IMG/VR virus record: IMGVR_UViG_2671181094_000008
Coordinates: 1-40,078 of that record
Length of the DNA stretch: 40,078 nucleotides
Direction: 5' to 3' (one strand)
From: a virus
Lineage: Duplodnaviria > Heunggongvirae > Uroviricota > Caudoviricetes
The translations under genes were made by a program, and so were the position numbers. A model generated the notes under the pieces. The model searched no databases, was not told the origin of the DNA, and saw nothing but the letters and a program-made list of their open reading frames with translations. Below are positions 26,959 through 36,533 of this stretch, piece after piece. Positions within the stretch are counted from its first letter, which is position 1. Every line of letters starts with the position of its first letter.

Positions 26959-27214
26959 TGGCCTTTCCCTCGCTGCGGAACATCATGATTGTCAGGTCGC
27001 CTTTAGTGGCCAGGCGAACGGTAGAGCCAGGTTCCAGGCTGTTAAGCTCAAAGGCGTCATAAAACTCATTCACAGCTTTCTGGCGGCGAGATTCCTTACG
27101 ACGCTTGTCCCACTGCCTCAGAGCATTTTTGGTAATCCACTGGCCTGTTTTAACCATGATGTATGCCCATCCAAGAATGGCTAAACCGGTATTGAGATAA
27201 GTAGCGATGCTCAT
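26951..27214 (-). CDS. Hypothetical small membrane protein
   Basis: Start MSIATYLNTGLAILGWAYIMV with one predicted TM helix. Confidence 0.4.
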   Translation of the reverse strand: MSIATYLNTGLAILGWAYIMVKTGQWITKNALRQWDKRRKESRRQKAVNEFYDAFELNSLEPGSTVRLATKGDLTIMMFRSEGKAND

Positions 27215-27657
27215 TTCCCGGCCCCCTCGCGCAGCGAGTCTGCCAGCCACTGCAAATTCATGATCTGCACGCCGATATTGCTGAACTTTTTATCCAGGTG
27301 AGCGATGGCCTTCTCAACTCCGCGCGCCTCGGCTTCGGCCATGATGCGATCGGTGGCGGGGGTTTCGATATTGTTGAGAGCGTCAGTAAACCCGCCCCTT
27401 TCCATGCCAAGTTCGGCTTCATAGTCGGCATCAAATGCAGCGTTTTTGCAGAAATTCTTCAGCGCCACATTCTCCGCAGCCAGCTGAGCATTTTGGTCTG
27501 CCAGCATATTCCCGGTTTTTATGGCGGCATCCAGTGAAGCGCTGCAAATGCGGAACTCTTTCGCCAGCTTCAGGAACTTCTGTTCTCTGATCGACGGCTC
27601 GCCTGCGCTCTCAAGGGAGGCGATGAGCTCGTTTACTGCCTGTAATGTGATAGTCAT
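27211..27657 (-). CDS. Hypothetical protein
   Basis: Start MTITLQAVNELIASLES chosen after the upstream stop. Confidence 0.4.
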   Translation of the reverse strand: MTITLQAVNELIASLESAGEPSIREQKFLKLAKEFRICSASLDAAIKTGNMLADQNAQLAAENVALKNFCKNAAFDADYEAELGMERGGFTDALNNIETPATDRIMAEAEARGVEKAIAHLDKKFSNIGVQIMNLQWLADSLREGAGK

Positions 27658-27947
27658 GCTGATGTTCTCCCGTAAACAGCCAGTACCCGTTTCATCGCCG
27701 GGCTTTGCCGACACTCGTTGAAAATCTGATTGGTGCTCTTCCTGCCTGAAATTTCTTCTTCAGTGGCCAGCCGGTAGTAAACCGTCCGCCACACCCGAGC
27801 TTCCGCTACCAGTACCCCCTGCTTTGCCAGGATATTGGCAGCCTGGTTGATGCAGGTATGCGTCATCCCGGAAGCCGCGGCGACATCTGGAGAGCTGCAG
27901 GTTTTATGCGTTTTCAGGTAGTTCAGAATTGCGTCTTTTCCTGTCAT
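27654..27947 (-). CDS. Hypothetical protein, possible winged-helix DNA-binding
   Basis: 97 aa, overlaps both neighbours. Confidence 0.35.
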   Translation of the reverse strand: MTGKDAILNYLKTHKTCSSPDVAAASGMTHTCINQAANILAKQGVLVAEARVWRTVYYRLATEEEISGRKSTNQIFNECRQSPAMKRVLAVYGRTSA

Positions 27948-28795
27948 GACCGGTTCTCCCGATAGCTGTCCCAGGTAAACGAAATCGTGCAGCCGCCGCC
28001 GTCGTTCATGCGGTCGATGACGCGCTCGCCGATAAACTGCGTCAGCTCATCCTTCGGCAGGTTGCTGATCAGGATCGTCGGCTTCAGGCGCTCGTAGCGG
28101 GTGTTGATGATTTCAAACATGATCATCTTCTCGGCTTCGCTGCCAAACTGCACACCAACCTCATCGACAATCAGAAGGTCTGGCTTCGTGAAGTAGCGGA
28201 TCACCTCATCCTCAGTGCGCGTGGCTGTTTTTGACCAGGTCGATTTAAACTCCCGGGCAATCTTCAGCGCCGTCGTGAAAATGACTGAGCTTTGGTGGTG
28301 CTCAATCACATGACGGGCAATGGCCAGCGCAAGGTGGTTTTTACCGGTACCAGGCTTGCCACACATAACCAACCCACCGCCCTGCTGGAGGCGATCAGTC
28401 CATTTCGATGCGTAGGCCTGGCAGACCCGTAATGCTCGCTCAGAATCCTTCCCAACAGGCTTGTAGCTGTCCAGAGTGCACGTGGAGAATCGCTCTGGTA
28501 TGTCCAGCTGGCGAAGCAGCCTTTCTGCAGTTTGCTGGCGAACTCGCTTATCCCAGCGAACCTTTTCATCCTTCAGAAAATTCAGTTCGTCTTGCAGGCA
28601 GCCCGGGCAGCGTGTCGGCGGTGATGGCAGATTGATGATGCTGCTGGTCAGGATCCGCTTACGCTGCTCATACTCGCCATGCTTTTCGCAACAGACGCGC
28701 TCGATAACCACCTCGCAATTCGGGATGTCTTCCGGTGGCTTACTCAGCTGATCAAGCATCCGCTCAATGGCAGTGATTTTTTCTTCCAGTTCCAT
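27944..28795 (-). CDS. DnaC-like replicative helicase loader (IstB-like AAA+ ATPase)
   Basis: Walker A GKPGTGKNHLA and Walker B LLIVDEVG; directly downstream of the O-like initiator. Confidence 0.8.
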   Translation of the reverse strand: MELEEKITAIERMLDQLSKPPEDIPNCEVVIERVCCEKHGEYEQRKRILTSSIINLPSPPTRCPGCLQDELNFLKDEKVRWDKRVRQQTAERLLRQLDIPERFSTCTLDSYKPVGKDSERALRVCQAYASKWTDRLQQGGGLVMCGKPGTGKNHLALAIARHVIEHHQSSVIFTTALKIAREFKSTWSKTATRTEDEVIRYFTKPDLLIVDEVGVQFGSEAEKMIMFEIINTRYERLKPTILISNLPKDELTQFIGERVIDRMNDGGGCTISFTWDSYRENRS

Positions 28796-28797
28796 GA

Positions 28798-29652
28798 TCA
28801 GTCCCTCGCCCATGATGGGATTTCAGTCTGCCCGTAATCCTTCCCTGAGAAATTTTCGGCAACTCGCACCTGTTGACTTGGTTGAGGCTTGGCACCATTT
28901 GGCTCAAACAGGCCTTGCCAGCCATTGGCGATGCTGCGGTTGATAATTTCTTCGGGCGAGTAACCGTTCAGTCTGCAGCGGTCCAGCAGGTTGATAGCCT
29001 GGGTGACCGTCTGCTGAGACTTGATCGGCTTTTTCAGGTCGCGACGATATGCCACCCATGACGACCAGATTTCTGCAGAAAGCCAGTCAGGCAACTGAAC
29101 AGCTAACGCATCGAACGAAACCGCCCGGGGGGATTTAGGGGGGTTATTAATATTGTCTTTATTGTCTTTTGTATGTTTGTCTTTTGTGTTTACCTGATTC
29201 GGGTAATAGGCGTTACCTGATTCGGGTAAACTTTTCTTACCTGATTCGGGTAATGTTACCTTTTTCAGGTAAGGTTTTTTTTCTTTACCTTTTACGGGTA
29301 AAGATGACCATTCGCTGACCGTTTTATTAATCCCGATAACACGACCGGTTTGAGTTAATATCCCCCGCTTAACCAGGACGCTTTTTGCAGCTGAGCACTT
29401 ATGCGGGAGAATGCCGGTCAGCTCCGAGAGCTGCTCGTTACTGACCCAGTCAGATTTCTTGTTGAAGCCGTATGTTTTGCGCATGACAGCCATGAACACC
29501 AAAAGCTGATGCTGCGACAGACCCGCACGCATGACAGCTTCAAGGAGCTCATTGGCGATGCGCGTAAACCCATCGTCGAGATCTGCCACGCGCAGCTCCT
29601 GTAGTGCCACGACAGGCACAGGGAAATTGATTACCTCGGCAGTATTTGCCAT
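28798..29652 (-). CDS. Replication initiator, lambda O-like
   Basis: Position after cII, an internal iteron array with a K/D/N-rich linker in the reading frame, followed by the helicase-loader gene. Confidence 0.75.
   Translation of the reverse strand: MANTAEVINFPVPVVALQELRVADLDDGFTRIANELLEAVMRAGLSQHQLLVFMAVMRKTYGFNKKSDWVSNEQLSELTGILPHKCSAAKSVLVKRGILTQTGRVIGINKTVSEWSSLPVKGKEKKPYLKKVTLPESGKKSLPESGNAYYPNQVNTKDKHTKDNKDNINNPPKSPRAVSFDALAVQLPDWLSAEIWSSWVAYRRDLKKPIKSQQTVTQAINLLDRCRLNGYSPEEIINRSIANGWQGLFEPNGAKPQPSQQVRVAENFSGKDYGQTEIPSWARD
29144..29302. repeat. Replication origin: five iterons plus adjacent AT-rich tract inside the O-like gene
   Basis: Iterons TACCTGATTCGGGTAA at 29191..29206, 29214..29229, 29238..29253, with degenerate copies TACCTTTTTCAGGTAA (29257..29272) and TACCTTTTACGGGTAA (about 29287..29302); each is an internal palindrome TACC-N8-GGTA. 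AT-rich tract at 29144..29190. Confidence 0.75.
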
Positions 29653-29737
29653 AATTACTCCTGTGAATTGATCCAGTTAATTCGCGTAGAAAGCCGTTAG
29701 TGTTGCTGCACTGCGGCTTTCGCCTTTCTGTTCCCAC

Positions 29738-29959
29738 TCATGCTTCAAAATCACCTTTCTCTCCCGGCCTGTTAGAAATCAGGATGGCCAGCAGCAGCGA
29801 CATGTTCGGCAGCAGACTTTCCCGCCAGCGACTCACCGTCGACTTATTCACTCCGGCCACTTTGGCGATATTCGTGGTTCCCAGTTCAGCTATCTGGCTG
29901 TGTAACCAGCTTTCTATCCTGCGAGCCTCCACTTTGTTGCGTGTCGTTGAACTCTCCAT
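29738..29959 (-). CDS. CII-like transcriptional activator
   Basis: 73 aa, similar to lambda CII as I recall it (RIESWLHSQIAELGT...STVSRWRESLLP..MSLLLAIL); sits between cro and O. Confidence 0.65.
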   Translation of the reverse strand: MESSTTRNKVEARRIESWLHSQIAELGTTNIAKVAGVNKSTVSRWRESLLPNMSLLLAILISNRPGEKGDFEA

Positions 29960-29999
29960 TTGTGATACTTCCTCTGGTGTTGTTTGGAATGGCCGCTGG

Positions 30000-30227
30000 T
30001 TAGGCGGCCGGTGAATGCGCGCTCAGCAACTGAGCAAGGTCAGGCCTGATCTCTGCCGCCTTAATCTTGCCGTTGGTCGCAGACACGATTTTCATTACAT
30101 AGCGAGCGTCAATTCCGCCGCCATGCAGCCAGCGCCAAACTGTCGGCTGCGCTACGCCACACAGATCGGCCAATTTTTTCTGACTGCCAGCGATATCAAT
30201 TGCCTTCTGGATGGTTTTGTTCGTCAT
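30000..30227 (-). CDS. Cro-like HTH repressor
   Basis: Start MTNKTIQKAID preceded by AGGAA; first gene of the rightward operon, divergent from cI. Confidence 0.6.
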   Translation of the reverse strand: MTNKTIQKAIDIAGSQKKLADLCGVAQPTVWRWLHGGGIDARYVMKIVSATNGKIKAAEIRPDLAQLLSAHSPAA

Positions 30228-30259
30228 GTTCCAATTCCTATAAGTATTGGTGCAAAATG

Positions 30260-30288
30260 ATAATAGCAATGCGTATTGGTTTTAGCAA
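30260..30288 (-). promoter_or_regulatory. PR-like early promoter with embedded operator
   Basis: Minus strand TTGCTA, 17-nt spacer, TATTAT; operator palindrome CAATGCGTATTG (30267..30278) in the spacer. Confidence 0.55.
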
Positions 30289-30302
30289 TAGCAAAACGTG
30301 TT

Positions 30303-30330
30303 TTGACCAGTAATACGCAAGCGTATAAAT
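30303..30330 (+). promoter_or_regulatory. PRM-like promoter for cI with overlapping operator
   Basis: TTGACC, 15-16-nt spacer, TATAAA(T); near-palindrome ATACGCAAGCGTAT (30313..30326) in the spacer; transcript would be almost leaderless. Confidence 0.45.
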
Positions 30331-30338
30331 TTGAGATT

Positions 30339-31037
30339 ATGAAAAAAGAAACTCTTGCAGATCGTTTAAACGAGGCCATGGCTTCGGCTGGAATGTCACA
30401 AGGGGCGCTTGCGAAGGCCTCAGGTATTGCTCAGCCAACCATTTGGCGCCTGGTGAGTGGAAACGCCAGGGGTTCAACAAAAATTGTCGAGATAGCTAAT
30501 GCTTTGGGCGTCAGGTCTGAATGGTTATCAACCGGAAATGGACCGATGCGCGATGACGGCCAGCTCCCTCGCGCTGCCCAGGTTAAAAGCCAGGATACTG
30601 ATGCATTCAGGATTGATGTGCTGGACCTTATGGTTAGTGCCGGGCCGGGCATCGTGAACCAGGAGTTCGTCGAGATTCTCCGTTCTGTTGAGTATGAGCC
30701 AGCTGAAGCCCGGCACATGTTCGATGGGCGTAAGGCTGAGAACATCCGGATCATCAACGTCCGGGGCGACAGCATGTCTGGGACGATTGAGCCGGGTGAT
30801 CTGCTGTTCGTCGACATCAGCGTTAAGAGCTTCGACGGCGACGGGATATACGCCTTCCTGTACGACGACACTGCTCACGTCAAGCGCCTGCAGAAGATGA
30901 AGGATAAGCTGCTGGTTATCTCAGATAACAAGAGCTATGCCCCTTGGGAACCGATCGAGAAAGATGAGATGAATCGGGTGTTCGTGTTCGGCAAGGTGAT
31001 CGGCAGCATGCCGCAGACGTACAGGAAGCATGGGTAA
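30339..31037 (+). CDS. CI-like repressor (HTH plus S24 LexA-like autopeptidase domain)
   Basis: N-terminal HTH, C-terminal GDSMSG (Ser nucleophile) and VKRL (Lys); divergent from cro. Start MKKETLADRL chosen over the upstream ATG to leave room for the operators. Confidence 0.85.
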   Translation: MKKETLADRLNEAMASAGMSQGALAKASGIAQPTIWRLVSGNARGSTKIVEIANALGVRSEWLSTGNGPMRDDGQLPRAAQVKSQDTDAFRIDVLDLMVSAGPGIVNQEFVEILRSVEYEPAEARHMFDGRKAENIRIINVRGDSMSGTIEPGDLLFVDISVKSFDGDGIYAFLYDDTAHVKRLQKMKDKLLVISDNKSYAPWEPIEKDEMNRVFVFGKVIGSMPQTYRKHG

Positions 31038-31059
31038 AGCCTTAGCACACAGAGGAAGC

Positions 31060-31179
31060 ATGTCTGATCTGATTATCCCAATACTCATTACTTTGCTGAT
31101 TATCGGGCTGGTTGGGATCGTGCTCAGGCTAGATAAGATTTTCTTCAAGCGAAGGGATGAGCGGGATGACTTTGAATAA
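31060..31179 (+). CDS. Small hydrophobic membrane peptide (39 aa), absent from the ORF track
   Basis: MSDLIIPILITLLIIGLVGIVLRLDKIFFKRRDERDDFE: one TM helix and charged tail; GAGG 4 nt upstream of the ATG; 22 nt downstream of the cI stop. Confidence 0.4.
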   Translation: MSDLIIPILITLLIIGLVGIVLRLDKIFFKRRDERDDFE

Positions 31180-31304
31180 GCCAGACCGGTAGTTCGATGT
31201 GTTTTTGGTAATGCCGAAGACGTACAGGAAGCATGGATAGCCAGCCAGTGGCCTGACAAGGTGTTTGGGTGATGAGAAGATAGCAATAACTTAGAGGCTT
31301 AAAT

Positions 31305-32069
31305 GTGATCAGAATAGGAAGGTTACTACCTGGCGGCATTGCAATTGACGAAGGGCAACATCACCCGATAAAGGGCGTTGCTCTTTTGATAAAAGAAAAT
31401 AGCGAACCAGAAGAGATTGTTGTTTTTGCAAAAGAAATATCTTCTAGGAGCATTTCTATAGAAATAACCTGCGCAGCCTTGGGAAGAGCTCTATCCCTGC
31501 CTATACCCGAGCCAGTACTACTGTTTGACAGCTCAAACAAAGCATTTTTTGGTAGTGTTGATGCTACCTATCCGAGTTTCATGAAGTATGTTTCTAACTC
31601 TTCAGATCAGGCCGTTTCTGATGCTTTGGCATCATGGCCGTTATTGAAAAAAGCTAGCTATTTTGATGAGTGGATTGCGATGGATGACCGTCACAACGGA
31701 AATTTGCTTTTCAATGGTGATGGTTTCTTCCTGATAGACCATGAATCGGCAATTCCCCAAGGTCTTGCCCCTGACCTTTTCGGGATAGATTATTACTCCA
31801 ATCAATTGCTGCAGGTAGCAACTTACATACTCGATAGAAGTAATGATATAGCCGTTCAGATGATGGCAAATGAGGCGAGAGCTTGGACCATGTCTTGCAA
31901 GAGTAACACCCTAACGCTATTAGATGGAGAGATATCCGAAACAGTTCAAGGTAAAGAGAAAAATCAAATAATGTCTTTCCTTTCATCTAGAATTGAGTTA
32001 CTAGGAGACATTCTTTATGATCAAATCAAGCCCCAACAAACACAGATGATATACGATGCTAAATCTTGA
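31305..32069 (+). CDS. HipA / PI3-4-kinase-like fold protein
   Basis: GTG start with AGAGG 8 nt upstream; catalytic-loop-like DRHNGNLLF and downstream FFLIDHES; AT-rich; co-oriented downstream of cI. Confidence 0.5.
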   Translation: MIRIGRLLPGGIAIDEGQHHPIKGVALLIKENSEPEEIVVFAKEISSRSISIEITCAALGRALSLPIPEPVLLFDSSNKAFFGSVDATYPSFMKYVSNSSDQAVSDALASWPLLKKASYFDEWIAMDDRHNGNLLFNGDGFFLIDHESAIPQGLAPDLFGIDYYSNQLLQVATYILDRSNDIAVQMMANEARAWTMSCKSNTLTLLDGEISETVQGKEKNQIMSFLSSRIELLGDILYDQIKPQQTQMIYDAKS

Positions 32070-32937
32070 TCAGCTTCTTAAGTCAGCTCCTGCTATGCCT
32101 GCAACATCAGGGCGCTGGGCATCTGTTTATCTTGAACCAATGATCGGCTCAGGAGAGCGGCTCACGGTAGCAGTTGCCACGATAACATCATCTGGTGAAA
32201 TTTTAGTTAAGCCGGCAATCAGAAAAGAAGTTATAGAAGCTATGTATGGCTTCAAAGCACCAGCATTTATCAATGTGGTTGATCTGATTTTGTCGAGTTT
32301 GAAGTTGCATCTGGCTGCTAAGGGGGATTTCGTATCATGGCATCCTCCAGTTACAGGCGTCACTATAAGCGCCGTAAGGAATGCTGCGTCATCAAGCCCT
32401 GTTGGCATACTCCGCCAAGCGGTATCATTGTCATCGAGTTTGTCATCACTCCTTGAGGCTGAAGAAGATTCCGATGGGTTGCCAGCTAAGCAATCAAGAA
32501 CTAAAGACAGGTGGCCAATTCAAATCTTTGATGCGGTTATCAGCGCTGACGGACGCAGGGATATTTTTTTCAATAGAAGCTTCACCTTTAGTGATGGACA
32601 CAGACCGGCTAAAATTTTCTATCTAAGCGATCATGCAGCTATCAACACCGGAAAACTGTTACCCCACAACTTGAATGAGCAGGTTAAGGATGGAAAAGCA
32701 AAAATATCTGACTTATCAATGATAAAAAGGCAAGGCGATATTTTTCCAAGAGAAACTCATCAAATGATTATCTACAAACCGGAAGATGATAGCCCTGCAT
32801 ACAATGATAGGCACATAGCATCAATAAATAGTGCGTACCTTTCTTTACAGGACTTGGCTAACACCTACGATGTATCAATCACTTCTGTAAGCACTGCCGA
32901 GCATGCAGCAAGGTTAATATTGCAAACTGCAGCATAA
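32056..32937 (+). CDS. Hypothetical protein, translationally coupled partner of the kinase-like gene
   Basis: 293 aa; start overlaps the upstream gene by 14 nt; no motif I recognise; AT-rich. Confidence 0.5.
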   Translation: MLNLDQLLKSAPAMPATSGRWASVYLEPMIGSGERLTVAVATITSSGEILVKPAIRKEVIEAMYGFKAPAFINVVDLILSSLKLHLAAKGDFVSWHPPVTGVTISAVRNAASSSPVGILRQAVSLSSSLSSLLEAEEDSDGLPAKQSRTKDRWPIQIFDAVISADGRRDIFFNRSFTFSDGHRPAKIFYLSDHAAINTGKLLPHNLNEQVKDGKAKISDLSMIKRQGDIFPRETHQMIIYKPEDDSPAYNDRHIASINSAYLSLQDLANTYDVSITSVSTAEHAARLILQTAA

Positions 32938-32945
32938 CTTTTGAT

Positions 32946-32970
32946 CCGGCCACCGCGCCGGGTTTTTACT
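32946..32970 (+). terminator. Rho-independent terminator ending the cI-cassette operon
   Basis: CCGGC-loop-GCCGG hairpin followed by GTTTTTAC immediately after the cassette stop. Confidence 0.5.
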
Positions 32971-32973
32971 GCC

Positions 32974-33177
32974 CTACTCTTCCCTCAGCATCAGCACGTC
33001 CAGCGCCAACTCCACAGCCAGATCGACCTGGTCTTCCTGCCACAACACCTGAATCATCTCTATCAGCGCCTCTCTTGATGGCTCGCGCCTCTCAACCAGC
33101 AGCTGCATAACCGCTATCCCGATGACCTGCGCAATCTGCGGGTGCATCTCTGCGAAAAACTCATCCTCATTCGACAT
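32974..33177 (-). CDS. Small acidic hypothetical protein, convergent with the cI operon
   Basis: Start MSNEDEFFAEMHPQ chosen; gene begins at the edge of the OL-like operator region. Confidence 0.4.
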   Translation of the reverse strand: MSNEDEFFAEMHPQIAQVIGIAVMQLLVERREPSREALIEMIQVLWQEDQVDLAVELALDVLMLREE

Positions 33178-33289
33178 GGCGCTACCCTTTTTGGCGTTTT
33201 TTTGAGCATAACAGCACAATAGGAAAAAATAAATTCATTTAGCTATCAATGATTTAATAGCAATAGCTATCAAATAATAACAATACGTA

Positions 33290-33318
33290 TTGCTATGGTT
33301 AATACTCATTGCTATTAT
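33290..33318 (+). promoter_or_regulatory. pL-like early-left promoter with OL-type operators
   Basis: TTGCTA, 17-nt spacer, TATTAT (same architecture as PR); perfect palindrome CAATACGTATTG at 33281..33292 overlapping the -35, plus TAGCAATAGC-type repeats upstream. Confidence 0.55.
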
Positions 33319-33397
33319 CATCTCATCCAAACAACACCGGCAACGCCGGGGTGAAGTCAAAACGTCCCGTTAGCCGCGATAAGGCAAAGGTGAAGAG

Positions 33398-33505
33398 ATG
33401 ATCCGCGAAGAAGACAAGCCTGCATGGCGTAATTTTTGGTTAAAGGTCGTTCCGTTTTTGGTTGCTGTTCTCGCAGTTAGCTATCCGTGCTGGGGTGGCA
33501 AATGA
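33398..33505 (+). CDS. Small membrane peptide (35 aa), first gene after pL
   Basis: MIREEDKPAWRNFWLKVVPFLVAVLAVSYPCWGGK; AGGTGA 6 nt upstream; ATGA overlap with the next ORF; not in the ORF track. Confidence 0.35.
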   Translation: MIREEDKPAWRNFWLKVVPFLVAVLAVSYPCWGGK

Positions 33506-33612
33506 GCAAACAAGGCATTCGTTCACTGATTTACTGCCTGCTGATCTGCGGCGTTATCTGGTCGGCTGTTGTTATCAAAATTCTGCACGTTACGGGGGTG
33601 TTCAATGGCTAA
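33502..33612 (+). CDS. Small membrane peptide (36 aa)
   Basis: MSKQGIRSLIYCLLICGVIWSAVVIKILHVTGVFNG; overlaps both neighbours; not in the ORF track. Confidence 0.35.
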   Translation: MSKQGIRSLIYCLLICGVIWSAVVIKILHVTGVFNG

Positions 33613-33799
33613 CTCAATTCCTAACAGCGGACGCGCCGTGATGATGCGTAACGCTAAAACTGGCGCCACCTGGAAGGTTTCACGTGACTACCTGAAAGAA
33701 ACCTTCTGGTTCGAGCCACAGGGCAACCTGCGCCACATTCGCAAAGCATTTGAGGCACGCGACCTGCTGCCGAATCTGGTTCCAGCCGGGACGCATTAA
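33605..33799 (+). CDS. Hypothetical protein (64 aa)
   Basis: Start MANSIPNSGRAV with a G-rich Shine-Dalgarno upstream; third of three overlapping small genes. Confidence 0.4.
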   Translation: MANSIPNSGRAVMMRNAKTGATWKVSRDYLKETFWFEPQGNLRHIRKAFEARDLLPNLVPAGTH

Positions 33800-33886
33800 C
33801 CGCGCATATCAGCGCACGAATTTAACTGAGCTATCAGGCAGCCAATACGGTGCCGGGATTCTTACAACCAAATTTCAGGGGAAACC

Positions 33887-34858
33887 ATGAGCGAAATAAT
33901 GGATTTAGTCGTCATCGAGAAAAAGAACGCGATGGCGGTTTTCACCAATAACGACCAACTCGATCCGCTTATCGAAGCGATCGAAAAAGAGGCTCGCAGT
34001 CTGGTGCCGGACGTGACCACCAAAAAAGGCCGCGATGCTATCGCATCCATGGCTCACAAGGTCGCGCGCTCTAAAACCTACATCGACAACGCAGGTAAAG
34101 CCCTGGTCGCTGAGCTGAAGGCGCTGCCAAAGCAGATTGATGAAAGCCGCCGCGTTGTCCGTGAGCGTCTCGATGCACTGAAAGATGAAGTGCGTCGCCC
34201 GTTGACCGAATGGGAGGCGGAGCAGGAACGCATTAAGGCCGAAGAAACCATGAACGCCCTTCACGTCGAAGCACTGGCCATGAATGAAGAGTTCGATCGG
34301 CAGCTGGCAGCTCGGATTGAGTCTGACCACGAAATGGCCCTGCTGATGAATGACGCTTTCGACCGAGAGCAGGCGGATAAAGCAGCTGAGGCTGAGCGCC
34401 AGCGCATTGCCCATGAAGAAGAAATTAAGCGAATGGCAGCCGCCGCAGCAGCCCGAGAAGTTGAGCAGCGCGCACAGCGTGAACGTGAAGAAGCGGCGCA
34501 TCGCGAAGCTGTGTTGAAAGCACAAGCTGAGCAGGCAGAGCGAGATCGCATTGCAGCCGAGAAGAAAGCTGAGGCTGACAAGCAGGCCGCTATCGAAGCG
34601 GAGCGCCGCAAAGCTCAGGAGGAAGCCGATCGCATCCGCCGCGAGGCAGAGCAACGCGAACAGGCCCGCCTGGCTGAGGAGAAACGTAAAGCCGATGAGC
34701 AGGCTCGCCGCGAAGCCGACGTTAAGCACCGCAAGGCTGTAGGCACTGAAATCGTCAAAGCTCTTCTGGCCAATACCAGCCTTACTCGGGATCAGGCTAT
34801 CGAGGTGCTTACAGCGGTTAAAGACGGCTGCATTCCCCATACCGGTATCAGTTACTGA
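33887..34858 (+). CDS. Coiled-coil protein with E/R/A/Q-rich central domain
   Basis: 323 aa; AGGGGA Shine-Dalgarno; long charged heptad-like region AEQERIKAEE...REAEQREQARLAEEKRKADEQARREAD. Confidence 0.5.
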   Translation: MSEIMDLVVIEKKNAMAVFTNNDQLDPLIEAIEKEARSLVPDVTTKKGRDAIASMAHKVARSKTYIDNAGKALVAELKALPKQIDESRRVVRERLDALKDEVRRPLTEWEAEQERIKAEETMNALHVEALAMNEEFDRQLAARIESDHEMALLMNDAFDREQADKAAEAERQRIAHEEEIKRMAAAAAAREVEQRAQREREEAAHREAVLKAQAEQAERDRIAAEKKAEADKQAAIEAERRKAQEEADRIRREAEQREQARLAEEKRKADEQARREADVKHRKAVGTEIVKALLANTSLTRDQAIEVLTAVKDGCIPHTGISY

Positions 34859-34859
34859 G

Positions 34860-35150
34860 GTGCTTATGAACGCATACCGCGCATACGACGCTATCGAAGA
34901 AAGGAAATGGGCTGAACAGTCGCTAACCGAAGAGAAGCAAAAGTGGATTGACGATCGGGCGCAGGAAATTATCGACGCCCTGCCGAAAGAGCCGTCAGGT
35001 CTGTTCCGCTTCTCTGTGCCGATGGACAAAAGCCCATACGAAGGCCTCCGCAGCGATGCAGCTGGCGAGGCATATAACGATCTCATCTCGGCAGTAGCTT
35101 ACGCCCAGGCGGAATACGACTGGGATCACCGCACCGGCTGCCCGTTTTAA
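34860..35150 (+). CDS. Hypothetical protein
   Basis: 96-aa ORF starting 2 nt after the upstream stop. Confidence 0.4.
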   Translation: MLMNAYRAYDAIEERKWAEQSLTEEKQKWIDDRAQEIIDALPKEPSGLFRFSVPMDKSPYEGLRSDAAGEAYNDLISAVAYAQAEYDWDHRTGCPF

Positions 35151-35166
35151 CTTTGAGGGGAATTCT

Positions 35167-35913
35167 ATGAGCACAGCACTTTCTACAATGGCCGGGAAGC
35201 TTGCCTCCCGCCTCGGCATGGATGCCGGAACTGACCTGATGAACACTCTGAAAAATACAGCATTTAAGGGTGGGAATGTCACTGATGAGCAGTTCACGGC
35301 ACTGCTGATCGTCGCCAACCAGTACGGACTAAATCCGTGGACGAAGGAGATTTATGCATTCCCGGATAAAGGCGGAATTGTTCCAGTGGTCGGCGTTGAC
35401 GGCTGGGCTCGAATCATCAACGAACATCCTCAGTTTGATGGAATGGAGTTTGCCTACGACAAGGAAGAAGGCGCGTGTACCTGCAAGATATACCGGAAAG
35501 ACCGCACACACCCGACCATCGTTACTGAGTACATGGGAGAGTGCAAACGCAACACTCAGCCATGGCAGTCCCACCCTACCCGTATGCTTCGTCACAAGAC
35601 GCTGATCCAGTGTGCGCGTCTCGCATTTGGGTTTGCTGGCATCTTCGATCAGGACGAAGCCGAACGTGTCATTGAAGGGAGTGCGACAGAGGTTCATGTA
35701 GGGCATGAATCGGATGATCGCCGCCCGGAACTGATCGCAAAAGGCGAGTCTGCCGCACGCCTTGGAACTGTTAAGTATCAGGAATTCTGGGTGGCGTTAA
35801 GCGCAGAAGAGAAACAGGTTATCGGCGCGGTTGAGAAGCGTCGCATGTATGACATGAGCCTTGCAGTCGACAACGCAGAACCTGTCGATGCCGCAGCGCC
35901 GGAGGATAAATGA
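35167..35913 (+). CDS. RecT-family single-strand annealing recombinase
   Basis: Contains NQYGLNPW...EIYAF and other RecT-like segments; followed by the YqaJ-type exonuclease. Confidence 0.8.
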   Translation: MSTALSTMAGKLASRLGMDAGTDLMNTLKNTAFKGGNVTDEQFTALLIVANQYGLNPWTKEIYAFPDKGGIVPVVGVDGWARIINEHPQFDGMEFAYDKEEGACTCKIYRKDRTHPTIVTEYMGECKRNTQPWQSHPTRMLRHKTLIQCARLAFGFAGIFDQDEAERVIEGSATEVHVGHESDDRRPELIAKGESAARLGTVKYQEFWVALSAEEKQVIGAVEKRRMYDMSLAVDNAEPVDAAAPEDK

Positions 35914-36533
35914 TGGAACAACGCACCCCAGAATGGTTTGCCGCTCGCTGCGGAAAAGTCACAGCCAGCCGCCTTGCTGACGTCATGGCCAGAACCAAGT
36001 CTGGCTATGCCGCAAGCCGACAGAACTACATGGCCGAGCTGATTTGCCAGCGCCTCACCGGGAAGCTTGAAGAAGGTTTCTCCAACGCCGCAATGATGCG
36101 CGGAACAGAACTCGAGCCGGTAGCGCGCGAAATGTATGCGCTGAATGAGTTCGATGCCGAAATCACTGAAGTGGGGCTTATCGATCACCCATCTATACCA
36201 GGATTTGCAGCAAGCCCTGATGGGCTTGTTAATGGTGATGGGCTTATCGAAATTAAGTGCCCCAACACCTGGACTCATCTTGAGACCTTAAAAACTGGCG
36301 AGCCAAAACGCCAGTACCTGCTGCAGATGCACGCTCAGATGATGTGCACAGGGCGTAAATGGTGTGATTTCGTTAGTTTCGACGATCGTCTACCACCAGA
36401 CCTCGCCTATTTCAAAAAGCGCATTCACTTCGACGAAGCACTGGCAAATGAGATTGAGTCCGAAGTGAAAAAGTTCCTGGAAGAGCTGGAGAAAGAAATT
36501 TCCAGCATAAAAAACCACGACCATGCCGCATGA
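35910..36533 (+). CDS. YqaJ-like recombination exonuclease (lambda Exo-type fold)
   Basis: N-terminus MMEQRTPEWFAARCGKVTAS typical of YqaJ; start overlaps the RecT stop. Confidence 0.8.
   Translation: MMEQRTPEWFAARCGKVTASRLADVMARTKSGYAASRQNYMAELICQRLTGKLEEGFSNAAMMRGTELEPVAREMYALNEFDAEITEVGLIDHPSIPGFAASPDGLVNGDGLIEIKCPNTWTHLETLKTGEPKRQYLLQMHAQMMCTGRKWCDFVSFDDRLPPDLAYFKKRIHFDEALANEIESEVKKFLEELEKEISSIKNHDHAA

Follow-up and report, generated by a model that had tools for sequence, protein, structure and literature searches.

Three probable 16-bp operators in the putative right operator of a lambdoid immunity switch from a Klebsiella prophage

Our analysis of the window (the whole stretch of viral DNA, 40,078 nucleotides long) indicates that positions 30228-30338 of this Klebsiella prophage are probably the right operator (OR) of an immunity switch of the lambdoid kind, with three 16-bp operators at which we infer repressor binding. 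The best-supported form of the operator is AATASS-N4-SSTATT, whose 14-bp core, ATAS-N6-STAT, resembles the 434 operator, and we adopt this 16-bp form because an alignment of 35 relatives, an unbiased enumeration of seeds and two related immunity types, those of ASU11 and SH2026Stx1, all point to it. As a lambdoid switch the region is ordinary, though its operators are of a type previously uncharacterised; nothing specific came from a literature search for the operator sequences or for operators of Klebsiella or ST104 phages, and one for binding, transcription-start or expression data found none for the phage or its homoimmune relatives. An earlier note on this DNA had proposed divergent PR and PRM promoters of an immunity switch, with an operator motif recurring at OL over PL, and in this general form the proposal holds.

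The gene setting is that of a lambdoid switch. Divergent cro and cI genes flank a 111-bp intergenic region, and the order along the window is cII, cro, the intergenic region, cI, plus-strand cargo genes, a small minus-strand ORF and PL at about 33290. The repressor gene cI (30339-31037, plus strand) encodes a 232-residue protein that matches Pfam Peptidase_S24 (2.4e-18), HTH_3 (7.9e-6) and Phage_CI_repr (1.9e-4); it thus has an HTH at its N terminus and, at its C terminus, a LexA-like S24 autopeptidase, in which SAG/PG, GDSM and VKRL motifs can be read directly from the sequence. The cro gene (30227..30000, minus strand) encodes a 75-residue protein with a YdaS-type HTH (Pfam YdaS_toxin, 4.7e-17; phrog_35, transcriptional repressor, 4.4e-26), and cII (29959..29738, minus strand) matches Pfam Phage_CII at 9.5e-13. 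The Pfam label "toxin" is misleading for Cro here, since experiments have established members of the YdaS family as Cro analogues, with footprints on comparable intergenic regions (PMC8630535). The Klebsiella phages vB_Kpn_RAH1 and 6 LV-2017 share 98% identity with 29700-31100, and their annotations read cI (C2 in 6 LV-2017), cro, cII or putative transcriptional regulator. Across the cII start codon, at 29937-29969 on the plus strand, TTGC-N6-TTGA is followed at -10 distance by GATACT, an arrangement that resembles a CII-activated PRE from which transcription would run back across cro and into cI. An Rfam scan of 27000-36000 gave no relevant match.

PR lies on the minus strand, with a -35 element TTGCTA at 30288..30283, a 17-bp spacer and a -10 element TATTAT at 30265..30260, and PL lies on the plus strand with the same elements and spacer (-35 at 33290-33295, -10 at 33313-33318); each has a TG extended -10, which at PR reads TGcTATTAT. 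This shared architecture had been described in the earlier note and was confirmed for both promoters at the positions it gave, an independent promoter scan agreeing. When up to one mismatch is allowed, TTGCTA-N17-TATTAT occurs in the 40 kb at PR and PL only, both times exactly, against 0.11 expected. A PRM-like promoter was found by consensus scan on the plus strand, with TTGACC at 30303-30308, a 17-bp spacer and TAAATT at 30326-30331. Among 35 distinct relatives the PR -10 and both PRM hexamers are invariant, and the TTGC of the PR -35 is conserved. In the same relatives the stretch between the PRM -10 and the cI ATG is always 7 bp long, although its sequence varies, and it has no SD; because the -10 ends this close to the ATG and the stretch lacks an SD, PRM transcription is predicted to start at the ATG or 1 nt before it, giving a leaderless cI mRNA.

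The three 16-mers lie in one register, with centres 25 and 25 bp apart, all on the plus strand as read here. OR1 (AATAGCAATGCGTATT, 30262-30277) occupies the PR spacer and 4 bp of the PR -10. OR2 (AATAGCAAAACGTGTT, 30287-30302) has three mismatches to OR1, shares 2 bp with the PR -35 and lies directly against the PRM -35. OR3 (AATACGCAAGCGTATA, 30312-30327) covers the PRM spacer and the start of the PRM -10, and it contains the near-palindrome ATACGCAAGCGTAT (30313-30326) that had already been noticed in the PRM spacer; this near-palindrome, which extends over the first base of the -10, has the correct dyad and turns out to be the 14-bp core of the site. Five of the 16 positions of OR3 are mismatched to OR1, which makes it the weakest OR site on sequence alone, and about 25 other places in the window match OR1 as well as this.

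The limits of these sites come from comparison with relatives. We collected 82 related loci, with CI proteins 82-99% identical, and aligned the cro-cI intergenic sequences, of which 35 are distinct; in a scan of viral contigs, 508 relatives were confirmed. In the alignment, conservation falls into three blocks: 30260-30277, with the PR -10 and a site; 30285-30309, with the TTGC of the PR -35, a site and the PRM -35 TTGACCA; and 30312-30331, with a site and the PRM -10. The linkers between them, 30278-84 and 30310-11, vary freely. Where a block edge is free of other elements it coincides with an edge of a 16-mer, at 30277|30278 and 30311|30312 and, at OL, at 33300|33301, whereas the left edge of OR1 and the limits of OR2 cannot be set by conservation alone, as they are confounded with promoter hexamers. 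The alignment shows, at the level of sequence, three 16-mers that overlap the PR and PRM hexamers and have sharp conservation edges, as expected of operator copies. Within OR1 only positions 10 and 11 vary among the 35 distinct sequences, and the operators as a set are weakly symmetric inside their outer four bases (AATAGC against AATACG). TAGCAAT direct repeats were considered as the unit and set aside, T30283 and A30284 being variable in relatives.

A different definition of the operator had been offered in the earlier note, namely that the operators are 12-bp palindromes of the form CAATRCGTATTG, with dyads at 30272/73 and 33286/87, accompanied by a separate 14-bp near-palindrome in the PRM spacer. 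We consider this improbable. Both 12-mers are present, CAATGCGTATTG at 30267-30278 and CAATACGTATTG at 33281-33292, exact matches to CAATRCGTATTG are confined to these two places in OR and OL, and a degenerate copy, TAATACTCATTG (33300-33311), lies in the PL spacer; CAATACGTATTG is a perfect palindrome, whereas CAATGCGTATTG is self-complementary at just 10 of 12 positions. Each overlaps a promoter, as had been said, but not in the same way, since CAATGCGTATTG lies in the PR spacer and CAATACGTATTG over the PL -35, the PL element at the PR-equivalent position being TAATACTCATTG. The OR1 12-mer is 3 bp off the dyad of the 16-mer, and its last base, G30278, is G in 23 relatives and A in 12, while the HTH of the compared representatives is identical but for one I/V position. 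The base with which the PL-spacer copy begins, T33300, varies too, being T in 30 relatives and C in 8. When up to two mismatches are allowed, the pattern shows no enrichment (12 matches, 5.85 expected), and it leaves the conserved block 30285-30302 and the site OL3 unexplained. Half-site centres only 5-6 bp apart would also misfit an HTH dimer of the 434 kind, to judge from the match of CI to 434 repressor, and ASU11, with the same recognition helix, lacks the palindrome and keeps the 16-mer frame. The set of sites was incomplete as well: OR2, OL1 in the PL spacer and OL3 had been missed, and OR1 had been paired with what is by position OL2.

The 16-bp form is favoured further by non-circular motif tests. 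When every 8- to 20-mer from OR and OL was searched against the rest of the window, enrichment peaked for the 14- to 17-mers of the 16-mer frame (p ~2e-19, with 7-8 matches inside and 0-1 outside) and dropped to ~1e-12 once the seeds were extended across G30278; 12-mer seeds in the frame of the palindromes scored below these 14- to 17-mers, which again speaks against the 12-bp palindromes. AATASSNNNNSSTATT, with up to one mismatch, has eight matches against 0.77 expected, seven of them in OR or OL. Used as a probe on both strands of the 40 kb, OR1 finds, with up to three mismatches, OL1, OL2 (in two registers) and OR2 only. Furthermore, a PWM trained on the three OR sites alone picked out, in 70 of 83 sequences (the 82 related loci and the window), OR and one further cluster downstream of cI, which is OL and whose distance from cI varies with the cargo.

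The motif of OR thus recurs at the distant OL, over PL, at 33256-33316, where 38 distinct OL regions were aligned together with the L048 group (probably ST104-like). OL1 (AATAGCAATGAGTATT, 33301-33316, minus strand), with one mismatch to OR1, takes up the PL spacer together with 4 bp of the PL -10, just as OR1 is placed over PR, and its edge is sharp among relatives, 33297-33300 varying and A at 33301 being invariant. OL2 (AATAACAATACGTATT, 33276-33291, plus strand), with two mismatches to OR1, follows at a step of 25 bp from OL1 and shares 2 bp with the PL -35, like OR2 at PR; it contains most of CAATACGTATTG and is conserved in relatives. A second, overlapping 16-mer, CATAGCAATACGTATT (33297..33282, minus strand), likewise has two mismatches to OR1, so that OL2 fits two registers 6 bp apart, and CAATACGTATTG is the middle of a 20-bp palindrome that contains OL2 in both. 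We favour the plus-strand register, by the 25-bp rule and by the layout of the ASU11 OL. OL3 (AATAGCAATAGCTATC, 33256-33271, plus strand) has four mismatches to OR1; in relatives its outer AAT...TAT is kept and its centre varies freely, and it is probably a weak site. The 20-bp palindrome ATAGCAATAC|GTATTGCTAT was also tried as the operator unit and rejected: it fits OL2 alone, and at OR1 its outer right half (30278-82) is unconserved.

The double register of OL2 could be read in another way, which we think is a long shot. OL2 would then be a composite 20-bp palindrome (ATAACAATAC|GTATTGCTAT, 33277-33296) made of two 14-bp operators offset by 6 bp, on roughly opposite helix faces, and, together with OL3, it would make OL bidirectional, controlling both PL and a divergent promoter for a conserved 67-aa gene towards the end of the cI operon. 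A promoter scan of the window lists a candidate for the latter, PL', on the minus strand and overlapping OL2 (TTAACC at 33302..33297, a 17-bp spacer and TATTAT at 33279..33274). As a promoter for the small ORF it is improbable, because in most relatives its -10 degrades to TATTAA, ATATTG and similar sequences, and because relatives with the same OL flank also occur without the ORF. The 67-aa ORF itself (32974-33177, minus strand; phrog_3946, function unassigned) points away from OL and is found about 100 bp from it in 42 of the 83 sequences (82 related loci and the window), next to cargo that varies.

Upstream of OL3, at 33226-33256, every group, even where the small ORF is missing, has kept a block AAAATAAATTCATTTAGCTATCAATGATTTA. 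Within it, TATCAATGATTTA matches the IHF consensus WATCAANNNNTTR some 70-100 bp upstream of the PL start. At lambda PL an IHF site lies in a similar position. Alternatively, the block could contain a weak fourth operator (GATAGCTAAATGAATT, minus strand). Another candidate site lies at 30233-30248 (plus strand) in the PR leader, where a core ATTC-N6-GTAT overlaps the cro SD; in the 35 relatives its outer ATTCC and GTAT are (nearly) invariant and its centre variable, its PWM score is only 9.9, and in ASU11 a similar ATTG-N6-CTAT precedes OR1. That this is an extra weak operator is speculative.

It may also be asked whether the likeness of PR and PL reflects no more than shared promoter elements (the -35 TTGCTA and an extended -10 TGCTATTAT) or the duplication of a promoter cassette, with the repressor binding elsewhere or otherwise. 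We give this very little credence. The longest stretch common to the two, CATTGCTATTATCAT (15 bp), is indeed centred on the -10, and the enriched word ATTGCTAT, which the sites share, contains TTGCTA and TGCTAT and is in part explained by the promoter elements themselves. OR2, OR3 and OL3, on the other hand, carry the motif away from any TATTAT -10, OR3 sits in a different promoter, PRM, and related immunity types have 14-bp palindromes of their own in the same register. Furthermore, the heteroimmune Klebsiella phage 2 LV-2017 replaces the motif together with the cI N-terminal domain and cro, and keeps PL from the -10 onward. This phage matches the window in cII (98%), in the CI C-terminal domain (92%) and in the PL transcript (82%), and loses homology at 30009-30656, which spans cro, OR and the cI N-terminal domain, and at 33021-33313, which spans OL; homology resumes at 33314, inside the PL -10, and no copy of the 16-mer motif was found in the replaced segments. 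To judge from this alignment, the comparison is one of classical imm-module exchange, in which operators, the repressor DNA-binding domain and cro have changed together.

Two related immunity types argue for the same 16-bp operators as the alignment does. In E. coli phage ASU11, whose CI N-terminal domain is 67% identical and carries the same helix AQPTIWR, the OR sites AATAGCAACACCTATT, AATAGACACACTTATA and AATAGCGGAGGCTATA follow the frame AATAGC-N4-CCTATT, with ATAG-N6-CTAT sites at 25-bp steps in both OR and OL. Its OL has two sites 25 bp apart over a PL of the form TTGCCA-17-TATTAT, with an OL2-type placement as here; the operator centres are unrelated to those of the window, and there is no 12-mer palindrome. 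In SH2026Stx1, with the helix QPAIQK, OR has three perfect 14-bp ATAAC-N4-GTTAT sites at steps of 25 and 24 bp, the last of them 26 bp from the cI ATG, exactly as OR3 is in the window, and OL has two more sites 25 bp apart. A further palindrome, CAAAACGTGTTTTG (30292-30305), was considered for OR2 and rejected: it is possible within the group of this window, but ASU11 and SH2026Stx1 lack such a palindrome and put OR2 25 bp from OR1, in the 16-mer register.

The proteins are consistent with operators of this kind. Among solved structures, 434 repressor is the best match to the N-terminal domain of CI (E 1.6e-5, with 61 residues aligned gap-free). The operators of 434 repressor are 14 bp long, each half having four conserved outer bases while the centre is uncontacted, and a Gln of its recognition helix reads A1. 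The recognition helix is common to CI (AQPTIWR) and Cro (AQPTVWR) here, and from this the two proteins should read the same sites. By analogy with lambda and 434, CI dimers on OR1/OR2 and OL1/OL2 would block PR and PL in the lysogen. OR2 abuts the weak PRM -35 and is centred at about -44, from where bound CI may activate PRM as in lambda; excess CI at OR3, over the PRM spacer and -10, would shut PRM off and so provide autorepression. RecA-stimulated self-cleavage of CI would lift repression, RecA-dependent induction being implied by the SAG/PG, GDSM and VKRL motifs of the S24 domain, and Cro would then bind the same sites and turn PRM off. What the sequence shows directly are the genes, the promoter-like elements, the enrichment of the motif, its conservation limits and its replacement along with cro and the cI N-terminal domain in a heteroimmune relative; binding itself, the order of occupancy, cooperativity, PRM activation and looping between OR and OL are all inferred here from the known switches.

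Many features of the layout are shared with lambda. In both, cI and cro are divergent and lie about 110 bp apart, with three tandem operators over back-to-back PR and PRM, OR2 beside the PRM -35, a leaderless cI mRNA (predicted here), a further set of operators over PL at a distance of about 3 kb, a CI with an S24 autocleavage domain, and a cII gene that here has the PRE-like TTGC-N6-TTGA at its start. About 85 bp separate the predicted PR and PRM starts, where lambda has 82, and the operators are spaced by 25 and 25 bp against 24 and 23. The differences lie in the operator, which is the 16-bp AATASS-N4-SSTATT and not of the 17-bp TATCACCGCCAGTGGTA type, in Cro, which has a YdaS-type HTH and not the lambda Cro fold, in the CI N-terminal domain, which is 434-like, and downstream of PL, where no N-like antiterminator is recognisable (33319-33900, plus strand), unlike in lambda.

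The comparison with 434 concerns recognition. The N-terminal domains align without gaps, each phage has a recognition helix common to its CI and Cro, in the operators of both the outer four bases of each half are conserved around a 6-bp centre that varies, and the Gln is retained in the helix here, with an operator core that starts with A. The helix is otherwise different, QPTIWR against QQSIEQ, and an extra conserved flanking A/T extends the operator to a 16-mer. Where imm434 pairs ACAA-N6-TTGT with the helix QQSIEQ, the window has ATAS-N6-STAT with AQPTIWR, and from the half-sites, ATAS against ACAA, immunity specificity therefore differs. By this analogy, the switch would work like that of 434 and is not a member of the imm434 group.

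By identity of the CI N-terminal domain (84%), the closest named immunity type would be ST104, represented by the Salmonella P22-like ST104, ST160 and the prophage Para1; a survey that uses repressor identity of at least 92% as a rule of thumb for immunity type lists ST104 as a distinct predicted specificity and reports no operator for it (PMC2629481). The L048 group, likely ST104-like and drawn from IMG/VR, has the same HTH but for one I/V position and the same OR blocks, and its OR1 is identical to OL1 of the window, while its full-length CI (~83% identical) and Cro (~77%) both fall under the 92% rule of thumb (PMC2629481). Cross-immunity with ST104-type phages is plausible, because the L048 HTH differs at that one I/V position only and the operators are conserved. 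Finally, the PaaR2/YdaS/YdaT switch of CP-933P in E. coli O157:H7 shares with the window a YdaS-type Cro analogue, a leaderless repressor gene, several evenly spaced repeats in an intergenic region of about 100 bp and matching sites at PL; it differs in its repressor PaaR2, which reportedly shows no sequence similarity to lambda CI, and in having 18-bp palindromes, consensus GTTTAGTAA, in four repeats against three here (PMC8630535).

Conceptually, the region adds nothing to the lambda paradigm. What it offers is an operator map and a consensus, AATAGCAAWRCGTATT, for a widespread immunity type whose closest annotated relatives are phages of Klebsiella, Salmonella and E. coli. These could be used for predicting homo-immunity among clinical Klebsiella prophages, as a guide in the design of virulent or inducible derivatives, and as an orthogonal repressor/operator pair.

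Several features around the switch are worth recording. Overlapping the cI stop codon, a 49-aa ORF (31030-31179, plus strand) encodes a single hydrophobic helix and is probably co-transcribed with cI; its DNA lies inside a segment that is 92% identical in the heteroimmune phage 2 LV-2017. Between cI and OL, in the position of rexAB, lies a two-gene cargo (31305-32937, plus strand) that varies among relatives of the same immunity, one gene encoding a HipA_2-like kinase (Pfam 9.6e-6, just under cutoff; PADLOC candidate PDC-M66A, 2e-6) and the other a phrog_21150 protein of 293 aa. This cargo may be a prophage-encoded defence or exclusion module. The first ORFs downstream of PL (33319-33900) encode two very small hydrophobic peptides, and the PL leader contains a GC-rich hairpin, CCGGCAACGCCGG, at 33337-33349.
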